A stretch of DNA of 24,000 nucleotides, from assembly GCA_025355835.1 (NCBI GenBank), contig JANXYW010000301.1:1-24000 (forward strand). The letters run 5' to 3'. The translations under genes and the position numbers were made by a program. The stretch is from Chloroflexota bacterium (GTDB lineage: Bacteria; Chloroflexota; Dehalococcoidia; DSTF01; JACRBR01). Below, in pieces: positions 525-7,973 of this stretch (the stretch's first letter is position 1; each line of letters begins with the position of its first letter). The notes under the pieces are model-generated. The model had not been told where the DNA came from, made no database searches, and saw nothing but the letters and a program-made list of their open reading frames with translations.

Positions 525-821
525 CTACTTCTTCTTCGCCGCCGGCTTCTTGGCCGCAGTCTTCTTTGCGGCCGGCTTCCGGGACTTCGCCGCAGCAGCC
601 TTCAACGGCTTCTTGGCGGCCGGCTTCTTCTTTGCGACAACCTTCTTCTTGGCGGCCGGCTTCTTCTTTGCGACAGCCTTCTTGGCTGCCGGCTTCTTCT
701 TGGCTACGGCCTTCTTGGCCGCCGGCTTCTTCGCTGCCGGCTTCTTGGCTACGGCCTTCTTGGCCGCTGGCTTCTTCTTGGCTGCCGGCTTCTTCGCTGC
801 CGGCTTCTTCGCTACAGCCAT
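525..821 (-). CDS. Histone H1-like Lys/Ala/Pro-repeat basic protein (98 aa)
   Basis: Product MAVAKKPAAKKPAAKKKPAAKKAVAKK... is almost entirely AKKP/AKKA repeats. AGGAGG lies 9 nt upstream of the ATG at 821. The ORF-track start at 899 would overlap the nrdJ 3' end and lacks an SD. Confidence 0.8.
   Translation of the reverse strand: MAVAKKPAAKKPAAKKKPAAKKAVAKKPAAKKPAAKKAVAKKKPAAKKAVAKKKPAAKKKVVAKKKPAAKKPLKAAAAKSRKPAAKKTAAKKPAAKKK
540..815. repeat. Degenerate 15-18-nt tandem codon repeats (GCCGGCTTCTT-type units) encoding the (P)AAKK repeats
   Basis: Repeated cttcttggc(c/t)gccggcttctt units are visible across 540-815. They generate low-complexity shadow ORFs on the opposite strand. Confidence 0.8.
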
Positions 822-864: not shown

Positions 865-3654
865 TTAGGAGCAGCCACTCGTACTACCGCAGTTATCACA
901 GCGGTAACACGTCCCCGACCTCATCATGATCCAGCCGCAGCTGGCACACGCGGGCGCATCCGCGTGCCCGTTGCCACGCGAGGCCTTGTACACAAGCGGC
1001 ACCACATCGGCCGCGCTGGTCTGCGCGTGTCCGTTGGTGCTGCCGTTGCTACCGGCGGCCGCTGTCGCGGGTGTTCCTCCGAACGGTAGCGGGTACTGCC
1101 CCGCCGCAAGCGCGGCCTTGATCTCCGGCGTCATCACGCCGACTTCATACGCTTCTTCCGGCGACATGTAGCGGCTCGCCAGCCACCGGAAGACGTAGTC
1201 GATGATCGATTGCGCGACCGGGATGTCCCGGTTCTCCGTGCGCCCCATCGGCTCGAACCGCATGTGGCTGAAGTTGCGCACCAGGTCTTGCACGGGAACG
1301 CCGTACTGCAATGCGTACGACACCGCGCGCCCGAACGCTTCCATCAGCCCGCTCACCGTCGAGCCCTGCTTTGCCATCGACAGGAAGATCTCGCCCGGCG
1401 TTCCGTCGTCGTACAGGCCGACGGTGATGTACCCGTCGTGCCCTTCGATGCAGAACTTGTGCGTGACCGAACTGCGGGTATCGCTCATCTTGCGGCGGAT
1501 TGGCCGCTGTTCTTCGGGCACATCCGCGGCGGCTACTTTGCCGCTCGATGTCGAAAGCGGCTGCACCGTCTTCGAGCCGTCGCGGTAGATGGCGATAGCT
1601 TTGATCCCGTGGCGCCACGCCTCAACGTAGGTGCTGGCAACATCCTCGATAGTTGCCTCGTTAGGGAGGTTCACCGTCTTGGAGATCGCACCCGAGATGA
1701 ATGGCTGTGCGGCGCCCATCATCTTGATGTGGCCCATGTGGTGGATCGAGCGCTCACCATGCTCGGCGCGGAACGCGCAGTCGAACACCGCCAGGTGTTC
1801 CGGCTGCAACGCGGGTGCGCCTTCGATGGTGCCGGTGTCGTCGATGTGGCGGATGATCGCTTCGATCTCCGCAGGTGCGTAGCCCAGACGCTTCAGTGCG
1901 CGCGGTACCGTCTGGTTGACGATCTTCATCATGCCGCCGCCGACGAGCTTCTTGTATTTCACCAGCGCGATGTCCGGCTCAACACCCGTCGTGTCGCAAT
2001 CCATCATGAACGCAATTGTCCCTGTTGGTGCGAGCACAGTGGCCTGCGCATTTCGATATCCAAACTTCTGTCCCAACTCCAACGCATCATCCCACGCACG
2101 TTGCGCCGCGTCGACCATGTGCGACGGCGCAAGTGCTGTATCTATTGTACGCGATGCGTCACGGTGTTTCGCAATGACGCGCAACATCGGCTCGCGATTT
2201 TCGTGGAATGCGTCGAACGGACCGACCCGCTGCGCGATCGCGGCGGACGTTGCGTACGCGTGTCCCGTCATCAGCGCCGTGATCGCGCCGGCGTACGCGC
2301 GGCCTTCATCGGAGTCGTACGGAAGTCCCAACGACATCAACAGCGCGCCGAGGTTCGCGTATCCCAGACCGAGCTGCCGCATCGCCCGCGTGTTCTCTTC
2401 GATCTTCTTCGTGGGATAGCTGGAGTTGCCGACGATGATCTCCTGCGCCCAAATCGAAACCGTCACGGCGCGCCGGAACATCTCGACATCGAACGTTCCG
2501 TCCTCATCGATGAACTTCATCAGGTTCAGCGAAGCGAGATTGCACGCCGAGTTGTCGATGTGCATGTACTCCGAGCACGGGTTGCTGGCGTTGATCCGCG
2601 CCGTGTTCGCGCAGGTGTGCCAGGCGTTCACCGTCGTGTCGTACTGCATGCCCGGATCGCCGCACTCCCACGCCGCCGCGGCCATCCGCTGCAGCAGGTC
2701 GCGCGCGTTAACCGTGCGCACAGTCGCGCCACCGACGGTCGCCTTCAGATCCCAGTCGCGGCCATCGACCGCCGCCTCCATGAAGGCGTCGGTCACGCGG
2801 ATCGAATTGTTGGCGTTCTGGAACTGGATCGACGACCAGGCGTCGCCGTTGAGCGACATGTCCCAGCCCGCCTGACCCAGCGCGAACGCCTTGCGCTCCT
2901 CGTTCACCTTGCAGTCGATGAAGTCCTCAATGTCGGCGTGATCCGCGTTCAAGACGACCATCTTGGCCGCCCGACGCGTCTTGCCGCCCGACTTGATGGA
3001 GCCGGCGATGCTGTCCGCTCCACGCATGAAGCTAATCGGTCCCGAAGCCTGGCCGCCTGCCGAGAGCTGCTCCTGGCTGGATCGGATCGGTGAAAGGTTG
3101 ATGCCCGAACCGGAACCGCCCTTGAAGATCATCCCCTCGGTCTTGCACCAATCGAGGATCGATTCCATCGTGTCGTCCACCGACAGGATGAAGCAGGCCG
3201 AACACTGCGGCTTTTCTTCGACGCCGACGTTGAACCAGACCGGACTGTTGAACGCCATCTTCTGGTTCAGCAGCAAGTGCGTCAACTCGTCGCGAAACGT
3301 CTGCGACTCCGCCGCGTCGTTGAAGTAGTTGTCCTTGATGCCCCAGTCCGTGATCGTCCCCGCGACGCGGCCGATCAATTGGCGCACGCTGCGCTCGCGC
3401 TGGTCGCTGCCCAGTGGCCCCCGGAAGTACTTCGACACCACGACGTTCGTCGCCGTCTGCGACCACGTTGCGGGGATCTCCACGTCCTTCTGCTCGAAGA
3501 AGGCGTTGCCGCTCTCGTCGGCGATGATGGCGGTGCGCATCTCCCATTCGAGTGCGTCGTACGGATCATCGCCGCTGCGCGTGAAGAAGCGCTCGACGGT
3601 GAAGGCAGTGCTCGTAAGTGTTCGTCGTACGTCTGGTTCGGCCTGGAGCACCAT
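865..3654 (-). CDS. nrdJ: Class II (adenosylcobalamin-dependent) ribonucleotide reductase NrdJ, 929 aa
   Basis: N-terminus FTRSGDDPYDALEWEMRTAII...VVVSKYFRG, then GGSGSGINLSPIRS and the active-site NPCSEY...CNLASLNL. C-terminal Cys-rich tail CASCGWIMMRSGTCYRCDNCGSTSGCS (CX2CX10CX2CX2C). SD GAAGGAAGGGA sits ~9 nt before the ATG at 3654. Confidence 0.95.
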   Translation of the reverse strand: MVLQAEPDVRRTLTSTAFTVERFFTRSGDDPYDALEWEMRTAIIADESGNAFFEQKDVEIPATWSQTATNVVVSKYFRGPLGSDQRERSVRQLIGRVAGTITDWGIKDNYFNDAAESQTFRDELTHLLLNQKMAFNSPVWFNVGVEEKPQCSACFILSVDDTMESILDWCKTEGMIFKGGSGSGINLSPIRSSQEQLSAGGQASGPISFMRGADSIAGSIKSGGKTRRAAKMVVLNADHADIEDFIDCKVNEERKAFALGQAGWDMSLNGDAWSSIQFQNANNSIRVTDAFMEAAVDGRDWDLKATVGGATVRTVNARDLLQRMAAAAWECGDPGMQYDTTVNAWHTCANTARINASNPCSEYMHIDNSACNLASLNLMKFIDEDGTFDVEMFRRAVTVSIWAQEIIVGNSSYPTKKIEENTRAMRQLGLGYANLGALLMSLGLPYDSDEGRAYAGAITALMTGHAYATSAAIAQRVGPFDAFHENREPMLRVIAKHRDASRTIDTALAPSHMVDAAQRAWDDALELGQKFGYRNAQATVLAPTGTIAFMMDCDTTGVEPDIALVKYKKLVGGGMMKIVNQTVPRALKRLGYAPAEIEAIIRHIDDTGTIEGAPALQPEHLAVFDCAFRAEHGERSIHHMGHIKMMGAAQPFISGAISKTVNLPNEATIEDVASTYVEAWRHGIKAIAIYRDGSKTVQPLSTSSGKVAAADVPEEQRPIRRKMSDTRSSVTHKFCIEGHDGYITVGLYDDGTPGEIFLSMAKQGSTVSGLMEAFGRAVSYALQYGVPVQDLVRNFSHMRFEPMGRTENRDIPVAQSIIDYVFRWLASRYMSPEEAYEVGVMTPEIKAALAAGQYPLPFGGTPATAAAGSNGSTNGHAQTSAADVVPLVYKASRGNGHADAPACASCGWIMMRSGTCYRCDNCGSTSGCS

Positions 3655-3678
3655 GGTCGCGGAGTCCCTTCCTTCTTA

Positions 3679-3948
3679 CTAGCCTGCCTGTGATCTCATA
3701 TCGATAGTCGTGCCGGCGAGCCTTGCGACCGCGCGCCAACTGGTGATGTTCGCCTTGTATGCGGGAAGATCGTCCAACGCCGCGCCTGTCGTGCGCGCGA
3801 ACTCCCGCAGCTGGTGCATGTGCGCATCGGCCCGCGCGTGTATGTCATCGATCGTGCTGTTGTGAACCGCGCAGAGGAACGTAAACGCTTCCGCGCTGAT
3901 GTCAGCGACAGCCTGATTGAGAACCGCGTCCGCTGCAACAGTTGTCAT
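3679..3948 (-). CDS. Hypothetical protein (89 aa, probably helical), directly upstream of nrdJ
   Basis: Internal ATG (MTTVAADAVLNQ...) preceded by GAGAGGTGGA. The stop TAG lies 24 nt before the nrdJ ATG. GC3 is ~71% by hand count, lower than its neighbours. No family recognised. Confidence 0.55.
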   Translation of the reverse strand: MTTVAADAVLNQAVADISAEAFTFLCAVHNSTIDDIHARADAHMHQLREFARTTGAALDDLPAYKANITSWRAVARLAGTTIDMRSQAG

Positions 3949-4041
3949 TCCACCTCTCGAAGCGCTAACTCCACGCTCCGCATAACAAATCGACGCCGCC
4001 GGAGTCGCTGCTCGCGACTCACGCACGGCGTCGCTCCGAAC

Positions 4042-4332
4042 CTAGTTCCGCGCAGTGACCGCAGCCGCTGCCTGATACTCCTGCCAATTACGCGTCAGCT
4101 CGCGCGCGATGACGTCCGGCTTCAGCACCGCAAGACCGGCCGGCGAACGTCCCGCACGCAGCATCGAGAGCAGCATCTCGAACCGCGCTTCATCCATGCC
4201 GTCACGCAGACAGCTCGTCAGCAGCGCGATGCCATCCTCGATCGCGCGCCGGTCGCCGCCGTCGGGAAGCAGGGCGAGACGCCGCCGGAACCCGGTCACG
4301 ACTTCATCCATGAAGATCTCCATGCCTGGCAT
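4042..4332 (-). CDS. Hypothetical protein (96 aa)
   Basis: ATG at 4332 preceded by GAAGGGG; alternative ATGs at 4323 and 4311. G/C-rich third positions. No family recognised. Confidence 0.6.
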   Translation of the reverse strand: MPGMEIFMDEVVTGFRRRLALLPDGGDRRAIEDGIALLTSCLRDGMDEARFEMLLSMLRAGRSPAGLAVLKPDVIARELTRNWQEYQAAAAVTARN

Positions 4333-4375
4333 CCTGCCCCTTCACACCCGCTCCACCGCGGGTGCAGCTGCCTGC

Positions 4376-4765
4376 TTAACGCCCGCGCTCGGGCCGCACC
4401 GTGCTGTCTACGAGCCGCAAGCGCGGCTCTGCGACGGCATCCGGCTCCGTTGCTGCCTCGGATTCGCCGACGGGCTCGCTGTAGCCCGCCGCCATGTGCT
4501 CCGGCACGCTCTCGATGATTCGCAGCCGGTACACCGATACCCGCTGCTCCGTCGGTCCCTGGAGCTTGAACGTCAGATGCTTGTCGCTGATCGTGTACAT
4601 CGTGCCGTCGCCCAGTTCGAGGCGCAGCTCGCCACGCTCGCGCTCGAGCATGTGCATCTCCCACGAGGGCCACATCGTCACTTCGCCACGCTCACGGTTG
4701 ACCTCGCAAGGACCGTTCGCGATGAACTCGCCGGCTGCGTTCAGAAGTTTGCCTTCGATGCGCAC
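4376..4765 (-). CDS. Hypothetical protein (129 aa, acidic C-terminal tail)
   Basis: GTG at 4765 lies 6 nt after a perfect AAGGAG that overlaps the upstream gene's stop. Third positions are very G/C-rich. The ORF-track start at 4876 would overlap the upstream gene by ~100 nt. No family recognised. Confidence 0.65.
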   Translation of the reverse strand: MRIEGKLLNAAGEFIANGPCEVNRERGEVTMWPSWEMHMLERERGELRLELGDGTMYTISDKHLTFKLQGPTEQRVSVYRLRIIESVPEHMAAGYSEPVGESEAATEPDAVAEPRLRLVDSTVRPERGR

Positions 4766-4776
4766 GATGCTCTCCT

Positions 4777-5052
4777 TCAGCCGCTTACGCTGGCGACAAA
4801 GTCGCTCGGAATCCGCACGATCGGCCGCCACTCTTCGTCGGGCGCGTTCCGCACCCACGCCGTCTCGCAATCGCACGCCTCGCGGTTCGGCATGTTGATC
4901 AGCTTCACGCAGTGGATCACGGAACGCACTTCCATGCCCTCAGGCGCGGCCCCGTCGACGCCCTTCGCGTTCCAGAACGCCTTCGCTTCTTCGACCGTAG
5001 CGGCGCGGTTGTAGGCTTCCGACTTGCAAATGGCGCAACCCAACGTGTCCAT
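4777..5052 (-). CDS. Hypothetical small Cys-rich protein (91 aa; N-terminal CxxC, later HC and CxC)
   Basis: ATG at 5052 preceded by GGAGGTGAGGAG with a 4-nt spacer, 25 nt after the nrdR stop. Product is MDTLGCAICKSEAYNRAATVEEAKAFWNAKG...IHC...ACDCETAW. G/C-rich third positions. The longer ORF-track form overlaps nrdR out of frame. Confidence 0.65.
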   Translation of the reverse strand: MDTLGCAICKSEAYNRAATVEEAKAFWNAKGVDGAAPEGMEVRSVIHCVKLINMPNREACDCETAWVRNAPDEEWRPIVRIPSDFVASVSG

Positions 5053-5077
5053 AACGCTCCTCACCTCCACACTGCTG

Positions 5078-5719
5078 CTATCTGGCCTTACGTCTCTTCG
5101 TCTGCTCCCGCGGCGCATCGGCCTTGTCCCCGAGCGGGACAGGAGTCTGCACCGGCCGCACCGGGCGGCGGGTACGGGTTCGTACATTCGGTGCGGCCGG
5201 GCGCAGCCGAAGAGAAGGGGGAGAGAACTCGGGATCCATGAACGGCAGCTGCGCATCCGCAGGCCGCACGCCGGACGCCATCGATTCGAGCTCCTCCTGA
5301 AACGCAGCCAGGTCGGCGAATTGCCGGTACACACTGGCGAAACGCACGTACGCAATCGGGTCGAGCGTGTGGAGCCGTTCCATCACCAGCTCGCCGATCG
5401 TGGTCGACGGGATCTCCGGCACATTCGTCTGGTACAGCGCCGACTCGATGTCGGCTGCCAGCGCCTCGACGGCCCCGGCCGGCAGCGGACGCTTCTCGCA
5501 CGCCTTCCGCAGCCCGCCGAGTAGCTTCTCGCGAGAGAACTCCTCGCGGCGACCGTCCTTCTTCACCACGAACAGCGCCACCGACTGCACGCGCTCATGC
5601 GTCGTGAAGCGGCTCGCGCAGTCCGGGTTCAGACATTCGCGCCGGCGTCGAATCGTGTCGTCGACATCGCGAGAGTCGACCACCTTCGAATCGTGATAAC
5701 CGCAGAACGGACAACGCAT
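5078..5719 (-). CDS. nrdR: Transcriptional repressor NrdR (213 aa) with a long Arg/Pro-rich C-terminal extension
   Basis: Zn-ribbon MRCPFCGYHDSKVVDSR...CLNPDCASRFTTHERV followed by ATP-cone VVKKDGRREEFSREKLLGGLRKACEKRP...IAYVRFASVYRQF. About 60 extra residues follow the conserved core. Confidence 0.93.
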   Translation of the reverse strand: MRCPFCGYHDSKVVDSRDVDDTIRRRRECLNPDCASRFTTHERVQSVALFVVKKDGRREEFSREKLLGGLRKACEKRPLPAGAVEALAADIESALYQTNVPEIPSTTIGELVMERLHTLDPIAYVRFASVYRQFADLAAFQEELESMASGVRPADAQLPFMDPEFSPPSLRLRPAAPNVRTRTRRPVRPVQTPVPLGDKADAPREQTKRRKAR

Positions 5720-5776
5720 TGGCGGGGTGTGCCCTCTCCCTGCCGCCGGACGCCCTCGTCGTAGGCGGCAAGCGCG

Positions 5777-5805
5777 AGATTAACACTACATCTGGTATTT
5801 GTCAA
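5777..5805 (-). promoter_or_regulatory. Sigma70-type promoter of the nrdR operon (-35 TTGACA, 17-nt spacer, -10 TAATCT)
   Basis: The minus strand reads TTGACA (5805-5800), aataccagatgtagtgt, then TAATCT (5782-5777). It lies ~55 nt upstream of the nrdR ATG. Confidence 0.6.
5783..5798 (-). promoter_or_regulatory. NrdR-box-like palindrome 1 (ATACCAGATGTAGTGT), filling the -35/-10 spacer
   Basis: 12/16 match to the NrdR box consensus as I recall it (acaCwAtATaTwGtgt). Shares ACCAGAT.T.GTG with box 2. Confidence 0.55.
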
Positions 5806-5824
5806 CGGGGGGAACGCTGAATCA

Positions 5825-5840
5825 CCACAATATCTGGTGT
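5825..5840 (-). promoter_or_regulatory. NrdR-box-like palindrome 2 (ACACCAGATATTGTGG), upstream of the -35
   Basis: 13/16 match to the recalled consensus. Centre-to-centre distance to box 1 is 42 bp, about four helical turns. Confidence 0.55.
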
Positions 5841-5907
5841 CTGTTCACGCACAAGTCACATGTCCGCCACTCGCGCCGGCGGCTCAACACGACATAAGAA
5901 TCCTATA

Positions 5908-6139
5908 ACGGTGACCAAAGCAGCCAGCATGCCGCCAGATCGCCGTAGGGACAGGTCTTCAGACCTGTCCGTCTCCCCGAACCGCGGCCAGACGCCTTGC
6001 CCGGAAATGTGGGACATCCGCCCCCGACTGTTGAGCGCTGCTCGATCTGGTCGATCGTTCGGACATAAGGAGAGATGTCCCTGTTGCGGCACGCCACGGC
6101 GCGCCCGCCGAACGTCCGATCCCGAAGTCGTCACGCCGT
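5908..6139 (+). ncRNA. Candidate cobalamin-riboswitch-like structured RNA (tentative, no downstream plus-strand gene)
   Basis: Plus strand 6003-6037 GGAAATGTGGGACATCCGCCCCCGACTGTTGAGCG resembles the conserved GGGAA..GGTG.GAA.TCC..GC.G.CCCCGC.ACTGT.A core. GCCACGG (6093-6099) resembles GCCACTG. CCCGAAG (6121-6127) resembles the first half of the B12 box. ACGGTGAC (5908-5915) can pair with GTCAC/CGT (6130-6139) as a P1-like helix. The GGGAAGGC motif and the ACCTGCC half of the B12 box are absent. Confidence 0.3.
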
Positions 6140-6530
6140 CCGTGCTGTCGGCGCGAATTCGAACGTTCGGCGGCGGACCGAACGCGGGCGCAACAGGTTG
6201 CGCCCCTACAGCGAGGTGCCGGTCGACGCCAATGTAGTTGCCATAATCGACGGAGCGCCTTGGCAGAGATCGTGAGTTATGGAAATCTAACGCCACCGGC
6301 GCTACAATATCCGTCAGTAGCCTAGGCTCCCGGTTCTGTGGTATCTGCGCGTATCACCTCATCGGGTCGGGCTACTCTTTTCTTTCAGGCGCGAAGCGGG
6401 GCCGGATGTAGCGCGGACTTCTGTCCAGGCGATGCTCGACCGCCTCCAGCGCGAGAAATGGGTAGGCCGTGAGCGGCGTCATCTCCCAATTCCGACGCTC
6501 ACGGCCCTGTCTCTCCCTGGTGGGGGAGTT

Positions 6531-6552
6531 CCCGAGGCACCTCTGCCCCGGG
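6531..6552 (-). terminator. Candidate terminator hairpin downstream of ftsZ (9-bp stem incl. one G-U, GAGG loop, no U-tract)
   Basis: The minus strand reads CCCGGGGCA-GAGG-TGCCTCGGG. It starts ~50 nt after the ftsZ TAA. Confidence 0.35.
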
Positions 6553-6602
6553 CAAATGCTGGCTAGACAGGCTCCTCCTTTCCCTACTCCTCCAGACGTT
6601 CC

Positions 6603-7973
6603 TTAGCGCGCCGCAACGGTGCGGCGCAGAAACGTCGGCAACTCGGTGTCGGTCGGGTCCGGCGCCGCCGCGGCAGCTGCGTGGACCGCTTCCAGAGGCT
6701 GCGGGTCGCTCGGGCGGTCATCGCCCGGCGTCTCGCGCCGGTACATCTCGGGAATCGGGTGCACGGCCACCGGCCGCGCGAAGCCCGTCGCGATGAGCGT
6801 GATCTGCACTTCGTCGCCCATGTTCGGGTCGACGGCTGTGCCGAAGATGATCTCCGCATCAGGGCTGACGACGTCGGCGATGATGCGCGCCGCCGCGTTG
6901 ATCTCGTGCAGCCCCAGGTTCTTGCCGCCGGTGATGTTGTAGAGCACGCCCTTCGCGCCATCGATCGACACTTCCAGCAGCGGGCTGCTGATCGCCATGC
7001 GCGCCGCGTCTTCCGCGCGATTCGGCCCGGTGCCCGTACCGATCGCCATCAGCGCCGGCCCCGCTTCCGACATGATCTTCCGCACGTCCGCGAAGTCGAG
7101 GTTGATGTCGCCCGGCAGCGTGATGATCTCGCTGATGCCGCGGATGCCCTGCAGCAGCACATCGTCCGCCGTGCGGAACGCGTCTTCGATGCTCGCCTTC
7201 TCGTCGCAGATCTCCAGCAGGCGATCGTTCGGGATGACGATGAGCGTGTCGACCTTCTCCTGCAGCCGCTGGATGCCCTCTTCGGCCTGCGCGCGGCGCT
7301 TGGCGCCCTCAAAGCTGAACGGCTTGGTCACGACGCCGATCGTCAGCGCGCCGGCCTCCTTCGCCACCTGAGCGACCATGGGCGCTGCGCCCGTGCCCGT
7401 GCCGCCGCCCATGCCGGCGGTGACGAACACCATCTCGCAGCCGCGTACGGCCTCCAGCAGCTCGTCGCGGCTCTCCTCGGCGGCGCGCAGTCCGCGCGCC
7501 GGGTCGCCGCCGACACCGAGGCCCTTCGTCAGCTTGTCGCCGACGCGGATCTTCACCTCGGCCGCCGAGTGCTGCAGCGCCTGCGCGTCTGTGTTGACCG
7601 CGACGAACTGCACGCCGGGGATCCGCTCCGCGATCATCCGGTTGACCGCGTTGCAGCCCCCTCCTCCAACTCCTACGACTTTGATTGGCGGCAGTCCGTC
7701 TGTGTATGTCTTGCTCATCGCCGACTCCCTTCGCTCCGTCTCTTGCTGCAGCTCGCGTACCTCTTCTTCGAACATCGCCACCTGCGTGTAGTGCGGACGT
7801 CCGTCGTCGCCGATCGTGTGTCGTCGCGCCTGCGCTTGCGGCTGTCGCGCCGGTTGCGTCGTCGGAGGCGGCGCTTCCGCCTGCCGAGGCGGTTCCATCG
7901 CCGGAGGCGGCGCTTCCGCGGGTTCATACATGAACCCGCCGCCCGTCATCATGTCGTCGCCAAATCCCGCCAT
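6603..7973 (-). CDS. ftsZ: Cell division GTPase FtsZ. The long form is 456 aa from ATG 7973; the canonical-length form is 371 aa from ATG 7718.
   Basis: [17 protein letters not shown], tubulin signature [12 protein letters not shown], and C-terminal FtsA-binding-type peptide [13 protein letters not shown] 7973 has AAGGAGG 4 nt upstream. ATG 7718 has GAAGGGAG 6 nt upstream and gives the usual ~11 residues before IKVVG. Confidence 0.95.

Follow-up and report, generated by a model that had tools for sequence, protein, structure and literature searches.

Four small protein-coding genes lie between nrdR and the class II ribonucleotide reductase gene nrdJ in an uncultured Chloroflexota lineage

Organization of the nrdR-nrdJ locus

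We analyzed a stretch of 24,000 nt (contig JANXYW010000301.1; hereafter, the window) from an uncultured soil lineage of Chloroflexota, whose closest species representatives are metagenome-assembled genomes (MAGs) of the Dehalococcoidia type, with NrdR proteins 92% and 88% identical to that of the window. Downstream of a complete dcw cluster whose last genes are ftsA and ftsZ, the minus strand carries nrdR and nrdJ, the latter encoding a B12-dependent ribonucleotide reductase (RNR), separated by four small open reading frames (ORFs) that we designate A to D, and followed by a gene for a KPAA-repeat protein (Table 1). The product of nrdR matched the Pfam domains Zn_ribbon_NrdR (7.5e-17) and ATP-cone (6.4e-20), and that of nrdJ matched Ribonuc_red_lgC (3e-146), plus Ribonuc_red_2_N and TSCPD. 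The four ORFs had been singled out in an original prediction as same-strand frames of 91, 129, 96 and 89 aa lying between nrdR and nrdJ, each with its own Shine-Dalgarno (SD)-like site; all their coordinates and spacings hold, as do the SD-like sites, which are GGAGGTGAGGAG for A, inside the nrdR-A gap, AAGGAG for B, overlapping the TGA of A, GAAGGGG for C, in the B-C gap, and GAGAGGTGG for D, in the C-D gap.

Table 1. Genes and sequence elements of the nrdR-nrdJ locus (positions in the window).
Feature	Coordinates	Strand	Remarks
NrdR box 1	5825..5840	minus	ACACCAGATATTGTGG; pattern search, 1 match against 0.01 expected; conserved in 11 relatives
-35 hexamer	5801..5806	minus	TTGACA; between the two NrdR boxes; invariant in 11/11 aligned relatives
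NrdR box 2	5783..5798	minus	ATACCAGATGTAGTGT; overlaps the -10 region; 26 bp after box 1
nrdR	5078..5719	minus	213 aa, ends in TAG; Zn-ribbon, ATP-cone and long basic C-terminal tail
ORF A	4777..5052	minus	91 aa; 25 nt after nrdR
ORF B	4376..4765	minus	129 aa, GTG start; 11 nt after A
ORF C	4042..4332	minus	96 aa; 43 nt after B
GC-rich hairpin after C	3991..4033	minus	CGACGCCG...CGGCGTCG enclosing GAGTCGC/GCGACTC, then ATTTGTTAT
Non-coding block upstream of D	3949..3981	minus	GCGGAGCGTGGAGTTAGCGCTTCGAGAGGTGGA; conserved among relatives at the nucleotide level; holds the SD site of D
ORF D	3679..3948	minus	89 aa; 93 nt after C
D-nrdJ spacer	3655..3678	minus	nrdJ ribosome-binding site GAAGGAAGGGACTCCGC; GAAAGGAATCCCGC block conserved
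nrdJ	865..3654	minus	929 aa; 24 nt after D; class II (B12-dependent) RNR
KPAA-repeat gene	525..821	minus	98 aa; 43 nt after nrdJ

The four small ORFs are genuine genes without described relatives

The GC content at codon positions 1/2/3 is.59/.50/.84 for A,.69/.45/.82 for B,.72/.47/.78 for C and.61/.50/.72 for D, and.58/.47/.83 and.71/.48/.86 for the reference genes nrdJ and ftsZ, respectively. This coding pattern of low GC at the second position and high GC at the third (GC3) is confined to the frames of A to D and is not seen in overlapping ORFs in other frames. In comparisons with relatives, substitutions are concentrated at third codon positions, and the ratio of nonsynonymous to synonymous substitutions (dN/dS) is 0.06–0.24 for A, 0.15–0.34 for B, 0.31–0.47 for C (0.66 against the distant locus L016 and 1.0 in locus L012), and 0.31 (against L011) and 0.66 (against L016) for D, compared with 0.07–0.17 for nrdJ. 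The same four genes were also called independently in metagenome assemblies containing identical proteins, of 91, 129, 93 and 89 aa; the call of 93 aa for C corresponds to a later ATG, and the retention in relatives of the "MP" start favors a product of 96 aa. Because of their codon-position composition, their dN/dS values and these independent gene calls, A to D are genuine protein-coding genes with host-like composition. This bears out the prediction that they are long-resident genes and that A, B and C share the G/C-biased third positions of the core genes.

Spurious long ORFs are common in a window of 65% GC, and the four frames might accordingly have stayed open by chance, given the GC-rich DNA, or be what is left of a larger gene that has decayed. 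This explanation, to which we attach a negligible probability, is refuted by the restriction of the coding pattern to the four proposed frames and the excess of third-position substitutions, as well as by the existence of families of constant length whose membership ranges from 28 to more than 500 and by the confident, compact folds modeled with AlphaFold2 (AF2) for A and B.

As had been predicted from inspection of the translations, none of the four products belongs to a described family, as judged from searches of Pfam, NCBIfam, PHROGs, PADLOC and PDB, which gave no family match for any of them. Likewise, Pfam searches with all the members of the alignments of B, C and D retrieved nothing consistent, and sequence and profile searches of PDB with A to D yielded nothing credible. 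The original prediction would have been refuted by clear matches to unrelated families such as prophage remnants. No such matches, or matches to defense or toxin-antitoxin families, were found: there was no significant PHROGs match and no PADLOC match, the composition is host-like, and B has no homolog in viral contigs or phage genomes and no viral fold match at E ≤ 0.001. No report of small genes in the nrdR-nrdJ interval of Chloroflexota was retrieved in a literature search. The locus can thus be described as a known type of operon with inserted genes, which include at least one previously undescribed protein family, that of B.

A candidate operon autoregulated by NrdR

NrdR is a near-universal bacterial regulator of deoxynucleoside triphosphate synthesis that senses ATP/dATP. 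The window contains two partially palindromic 16-bp NrdR boxes upstream of nrdR (box 1 has two mismatches to the consensus on rescanning), separated by 42 bp from start to start; as in NrdR-controlled operons, they form a tandem located in the promoter and spaced by an integral number of helical turns. The architecture of the box pair with the TTGACA hexamer is conserved in 11 relatives, and a scan of the complete 24-kb window revealed no other NrdR box with up to four mismatches. The linker of 26 bp differs from the predominant length of 15–16 bp, which it exceeds by one helical turn, although boxes with linkers of 26–27 bp bind NrdR in vitro (PMC13584703).

A consensus scan of the gene strand between nrdR and nrdJ found neither a terminator nor an internal promoter, and we therefore discarded an internal promoter or NrdR box ahead of nrdJ, since the promoter and box scans revealed none. 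Similarly, a riboswitch or other known RNA between C and nrdJ was discarded, as there was no Rfam match at the gathering threshold in the window and, at E ≤ 10, a single chance match within positions 3500–6000. Genes nrdR and nrdJ are co-oriented and adjacent, as judged from Pfam matches and coordinates, and a class II RNR gene follows nrdR in the same order in nearly all of 80 related nrdR loci that we collected from species-representative genomes (numbered here with the prefix L). Since the only NrdR boxes of the window are those preceding nrdR, the simplest reading is that nrdR, A, B, C, D and nrdJ, together with the KPAA-repeat gene, constitute a single operon that would be autoregulated by NrdR. 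The KPAA-repeat gene is probably part of it because it is found directly after nrdJ in eight relatives; its product is rich in Lys, Ala and Pro, with KKPAA repeats, and resembles histone H1 or HU tails. A GC-rich hairpin without a U-tract, at approximately positions 490–517 and downstream of this gene, is the probable end of the operon.

The arrangement is reminiscent of the nrdRJ operon of Streptomyces coelicolor, in which nrdR also precedes a co-oriented nrdJ and follows tandem NrdR boxes overlapping the promoter. The two differ, however, in that the operon of the window includes four extra small genes (1.4 kb) and the KPAA-repeat gene after nrdJ, and in that its NrdR carries a basic C-terminal extension of around 60 aa.

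The C-D gap contains an inverted repeat forming a GC-rich hairpin (Table 1), with a ΔG of -49.1 and a z-score of -3.4 for the fold of 111 nt. In most of 22 loci, with L012 and L016 as the clear exceptions, a hairpin of 9–17 bp occurs 10–17 nt after the stop codon of C, and its stem sequences differ among loci. This structure is similar to the hairpin after the KPAA-repeat gene and may serve for partial termination, for processing or for stabilization of the transcript. By partial termination or by transcript stabilization, it would probably set the levels of nrdR, A, B and C relative to those of D and nrdJ.

The small genes form a nested set restricted to one lineage

An RNR gene is found directly after nrdR in most of the 80 loci, with a gap of around 100–300 nt, and the small genes are confined to one part of the NrdR tree. 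The arrangement of nrdR and nrdJ with intervening small genes recurs in seven species-representative genomes (L011–L017) and in 19 contigs returned by a metagenome scan seeded with C; the order in the latter is nrdR-(A)-B-C-(D)-nrdJ in 19/19, and the order A-B-C-D is invariant across all loci. The distribution of each gene is nevertheless different. B is present in L011–L017, with distant copies (41–44% identity) in L024, L043 and L086, and each of its copies in species-representative loci lies directly after nrdR or after A. C occurs in L011–L017 and in the 19 metagenome loci, exclusively in the clade of the window and always downstream of B. Among species representatives, A was found in L011–L013 only, and considering all loci it is present at 8 of the approximately 20 junctions covered. 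D was identified by tblastn in L011 and L016 only among species representatives, and over all loci it is full-length in 13 (including the window), shortened in nine and gone in one.

These comparisons indicate that A to D are a nested, lineage-restricted set of genes from uncultured Chloroflexota with Dehalococcoidia-type MAGs, in which B is the old core, C was added in the clade of the window, and D and A are younger and often lost. The suggestion that a conserved set of four small partners accompanies the RNR gene stands, therefore, in that the block does recur between nrdR and nrdJ in relatives, but not in that the quartet is fixed: B alone is widely conserved, reaching as far as distant lineages of Chloroflexota.

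Other lineages carry unrelated ORFs in the same position. In L037 (10579–11747) and L038 (4462–5618), from other Dehalococcoidia lineages, the gap between nrdR and the RNR gene is occupied by an ORF of around 105 aa and a gene for a 275-aa, IrrE/ImmA-like Peptidase_M78 protein (E of 5e-15 and 1e-20, respectively). Peptidase_M78-family proteases cleave repressors in other systems, and for this reason their position beside nrdR is, by analogy, suggestive. L017 (5177–5425) contains a DUF2188 gene (E 5e-21) between B and C, an ORF of 122–129 aa follows B in L043, and L082 contains an ORF for a Cys/His-rich product of 175 aa between nrdR and nrdJ; unrelated ORFs in this slot were also found in L040 and L064. 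The occupation of the same slot by unrelated genes in other lineages indicates that it accepts passengers.

ORF B and the C-terminal tail of NrdR

A profile search in 5.8 billion proteins retrieved 525 homologs of B. The 120 homologs listed had no Pfam domain and were unnamed or annotated as hypothetical, and the MAGs named were from Chloroflexota. HMMER, run exhaustively over 1.84 billion representatives, found 45 clusters at 50% identity, two of which, P0137 and P0164, correspond to giant LapA and Big-domain adhesins and were discarded as repeat artefacts. Among five distant homologs whose context was looked up, P0135, P0148, P0145 and P0136 lie directly downstream of nrdR, with the start of B overlapping the nrdR stop codon in P0148; homolog P0160, on a 1.1-kb contig, is located between a truncated upstream ORF and an nrdJ-like gene. 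B thus adjoins nrdR in the lineages examined, even though its identity to that of the window is just 25–45%, and among the contexts examined no homolog was seen elsewhere than in nrdR/nrdJ loci. It accompanies two nrdJ subtypes, with approximately 70–90% and 31% identity to the enzyme of the window. A distant nrdR-B-nrdJ arrangement in L092 (4269–7844) includes an nrdJ of 1191 aa with an intein bearing a LAGLIDADG endonuclease domain.

The B product contains a core of around 85 aa, with near-invariant residues N9, G12, E13, A16, G18, C20, G45, G54 and Y79-R80, followed by a variable, disordered tail that has a net negative charge in 55 of 68 members. A diverse alignment shows Cys20 in at least 90% of its sequences, and a few members of the family lack it. 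The AF2 model is an all-beta domain, read here as a small beta-barrel, predicted with high confidence to about residue 90. B had no match in Pfam or among PDB sequences, and Foldseek searches against PDB and viral models returned nothing convincing (best E 6–8e-3, with TM-scores of 0.3–0.4 for the best-supported matches); the weak fold matches were to HtrA/DegS half-barrels, split barrels, and Hcp or tail-tube proteins. The possibility that B is an NrdI-type flavodoxin was discarded, since there was no family match and the model is all-beta instead of alpha/beta.

In the clade of the window, NrdR has a Pro/Arg-rich extension of around 60 aa (residues ~150–213, at positions 5078–5270 in the window, and the corresponding region of related loci) past QLPLL, a motif common to the Dehalococcoidia NrdRs compared. 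The length of NrdR separates the loci with and without B: it is 204–224 aa in 21 distinct loci with B versus 172–203 aa in 68 without it, with no overlap, and the net charge of the tail beyond residue 150 is +7.9 and +3.3, respectively. In the NrdR tree, the loci with B make up one large clade, which encloses two inner sub-lineages that lack B and have the shorter NrdR (172–203 aa). The presence of B follows this long basic tail and not the nrdJ subtype, and for this reason B most likely works with NrdR. In the mechanism that we propose, the acidic tail of B would engage the extended basic tail of NrdR, tuning its oligomerization or its binding to DNA. We know of no protein partner of NrdR described in the literature searched.

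ORFs C and D and the junction with nrdJ

The profile of C gave weak, HEAT-like matches to designed alphaRep proteins (whole-sequence E 0.008–0.2), with no single stretch passing the threshold, and searches of Pfam retrieved nothing consistent. A profile-profile comparison showed C and D to be unrelated.

D is fast-evolving, and its length differs from one relative to another. The 13 full-length copies of D share V4-A5, a conserved central helix pattern, the motif NITxWRAxARLAG and a C-terminal QAG, and W71, R72, R76 and L77 are invariant, with conservative replacements; in nine relatives the middle of the gene is deleted or scrambled. In spite of this, the frame is open from GTTGC (codons 4–5) to the CAGGCAGGCTAG stop in 21 of 22 relatives, with lengths of 28–100 aa, and in 18 of 21 the spacer between this stop codon and the ATG of nrdJ is 22–24 nt. 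Additionally, CAG-GCA-GGC in D shows almost no synonymous change. Because the frame and the position of the stop are kept where the sequence of D has decayed, the translation of D is probably coupled to the initiation of nrdJ, whatever the D protein does, and this pattern argues that translation through the D region to a fixed stop beside the nrdJ ribosome-binding site is under selection. As in translationally coupled upstream ORFs, D stops a short distance from the next gene and its frame survives in the decayed versions, but it is unlike them in its length (89 aa) and in its conservation at the protein level in around half of the relatives.

Nucleotide conservation beyond coding need was also observed in GTGGGNTTAGCGCTTCGAGAGGTGG, within the non-coding block upstream of D (3949–3981), and in CAGGCAGGCTAG...GAAAGGAATCCCGC, upstream of nrdJ (3655–3690). 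We found no conserved RNA structure at the D-nrdJ junction. A candidate long-range pairing of GUGGGAUU, upstream of D, with AAUCCCGC, in the region of the nrdJ ribosome-binding site, was rejected: it amounts to 8 bp in some loci, and its variable positions are compensated in the window alone.

These features raise the tentative possibility, compatible with the coupling proposed above, that D acts mainly in cis as a translated leader that brings ribosomes to the start of nrdJ, its peptide having no function of its own. The nine shortened or decayed versions with frame and stop retained would fit this explanation, as would the conservation at the nucleotide level of the start region, CAGGCAGGCTAG and the ribosome-binding block of nrdJ, and the values of GC3 (0.72) and dN/dS of D, respectively the lowest and the highest among ORFs A to D. 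Conversely, the protein-like conservation of the 13 full-length copies and the dN/dS of 0.31 against L011 speak for a functional product, and no conserved RNA structure sequesters the nrdJ ribosome-binding site, with almost no covariation in the candidate 8-bp pairing.

ORF A, its possible zinc site and the possible reduction of NrdJ

A belongs to a clade-restricted orphan family, with 28 homologs in 5.8 billion proteins that are 91–95 aa long and 57–92% identical. The N-terminal CxxC plus HC/CxC noted in the original prediction, where a metal site or a redox-active pair was contemplated, are indeed present as C6xxC9, H47-C48 and C60xC62 (pattern C-x2-C-x38-C-x11-C-x-C); in the 28 sequences, the five Cys residues (C6, C9, C48, C60 and C62) and three Trp are invariant, while His47 is variable. 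The AF2 model (pLDDT, the predicted local distance difference test, of 82) contains one helix (residues 20–29) and a five-stranded sheet (strands within 41–80), with the CxxC of residues 6–9 in coil. Fold searches gave no match with E < 1, and none to PDB folds or to the thioredoxin fold; searches of Pfam and NCBIfam found no match at E ≤ 1 to any family, redoxins included; and a PDB profile search returned a single spurious antibody match and no RNR chain. We therefore rejected A as a thioredoxin-fold redoxin (NrdH, glutaredoxin or thioredoxin), there being no family match and the fold having one helix, with the CxxC not at the N-terminus of helix 1. The invariant pairs C6/C9 and C60/C62, plus C48, show instead the pattern of two knuckles of a Cys4 zinc protein. 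A structural Cys4 zinc site is thus no less likely than a redox pair, and most simply A would be a small Cys4 zinc-binding protein of recent addition, as suggested by the model and the conserved residues.

The C-terminal domain of NrdJ in the window is Cys-rich (C-x2-C-x9-C-x2-C-x2-C-x5-C), with a spacing identical to that of the S. nassauensis domain (Cys920/923/933/936/939/945) (PMC5704485). In class II RNRs this domain binds zinc and is tied to turnover, and its physiological reductant is not known; it is an acknowledged open question which native donor supplies electrons to the majority type of these enzymes, and the thioredoxins and glutaredoxin tested failed for such enzymes (PMC5704485). 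Extending the redox idea of the original prediction, it could be envisaged that A, with its five invariant Cys, and B, with the Cys20 found in at least 90% of the diverse alignment, pass reducing equivalents to the Cys-rich domain of NrdJ. We consider such a relay very improbable. There was no family or fold match to thioredoxin, glutaredoxin or NrdH; the CxxC of A lies in coil ahead of a short strand and resembles, with the CxC, two zinc knuckles; A is limited to a tiny sub-clade, whereas NrdJ enzymes with the Cys-rich domain are widespread; and B has one conserved Cys, absent in a few members, and accompanies features of NrdR and not the subtypes of nrdJ.

Class II RNRs need neither NrdH nor NrdI. 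As the NrdH and NrdI proteins of class Ib nrdHIEF operons, A and B are small proteins encoded together with an RNR, and A shares an N-terminal CxxC with NrdH, but neither A nor B matches these families, and the one helix and five-stranded sheet of A and the all-beta fold of B correspond to neither a thioredoxin nor a flavodoxin fold. A is also a small Cys-rich unit like the Cys-rich domain of class II RNRs and NrdJb of Pseudomonas aeruginosa (PMC5704485), from which it differs in Cys pattern and length and in being a separate gene located two genes away from nrdJ.

Accessory factors or passengers of the operon

From these results we propose a model in which A to D would be transcribed together with nrdR and nrdJ and, because of this predicted co-transcription, their products would be made under the ATP/dATP-sensing repression exerted by NrdR. 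They would be accessory factors of the pair formed by regulator and enzyme and not unrelated passengers: B would act on or with NrdR, translation of D up to the nrdJ ribosome-binding site would couple to nrdJ initiation, and A would join as a recent zinc-binding add-on. Taken as a whole, we see this model as evenly poised between right and wrong, and the part that concerns the genes and the operon stands on far firmer ground than the mechanism for B and NrdR. A more ambitious version, which we hold to be unlikely, is that B and A are part of the native re-reduction or turnover system of class II RNRs with the Cys-rich domain or that B is the first protein partner of NrdR, its acidic tail docking on the basic tail of NrdR and modulating DNA binding.

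Several observations weigh against the proposed model. The hairpin after C might truly terminate transcription, in which case D and nrdJ would need their own promoter, and none was found. The correlation of B with the NrdR tail, although consistent, is confounded with phylogeny and comes down to approximately one gain and two losses, and nrdJ follows B in every complete locus, so that adjacency cannot separate a partner of NrdR from a partner of NrdJ; moreover, the fold of B has no convincing match (best Foldseek E 7.5e-3, TM-scores of 0.3–0.4). At 67% GC it is not uncommon for frames to stay open over around 50 codons, which makes the argument from frame retention in D a moderate one. Lastly, many relatives do without A and D, the dN/dS of C is around 1 in L012, and unrelated genes (Peptidase_M78, DUF2188 and others) occupy the same slot in other lineages.

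The last of these points would also be expected if the slot between nrdR and nrdJ were simply a permissive, well-expressed landing site in Chloroflexota, and the functions of A to D were unrelated to ribonucleotide reduction. This is consistent with the insertion at the same place of Peptidase_M78 with its accompanying ORF in L037/L038, of DUF2188 in L017 and of the ORFs in L040, L043, L064 and L082, with the patchy distribution of A and D among relatives, with the neutral appearance of C in L012 (dN/dS 1.0) and with the existence of just 28 homologs of A. Nevertheless, B stays directly after nrdR in the lineages examined, at 25–45% identity, and none was found elsewhere in the contexts examined; the order A-B-C-D never varies; A, B, C and most copies of D are under purifying selection; and the length of the NrdR tail tracks the presence of B. 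We therefore find it rather unlikely that the four genes are passengers, an explanation that suits B less well than A and, perhaps, C and D.

The locus also illustrates the way in which an essential, tightly regulated operon accretes small genes specific to a lineage. It concerns uncultured organisms and phylum-restricted families, with the functional roles of A to D proposed from sequence; within this frame, B is a concrete, cloneable candidate both for a partner of NrdR and for the questions surrounding the reductant of class II RNRs.

Other conserved elements upstream of nrdR

Directly downstream of the ftsZ stop codon, at 6603, the minus strand contains a conserved, structured non-coding element of around 290 nt (6315–6602). 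It comprises blocks that are 72–86% identical across relatives and that flank a variable insert, and RNAalifold predicted 76 pairs, including 14 that show compensatory changes, with G-U pairs that fit the minus strand. The element had no Rfam match even at E ≤ 10, and nhmmer searches found it in the clade of the window only, plus one weak match in L043. The interval from this element to the nrdR promoter includes a perfect GC hairpin of 8 bp (GGGCGCAA-CCUG-UUGCGCCC; 6186–6205, minus strand), which surfaced only as a chance Rfam match and may be the terminator of the ftsZ transcript or of that of the RNA element.

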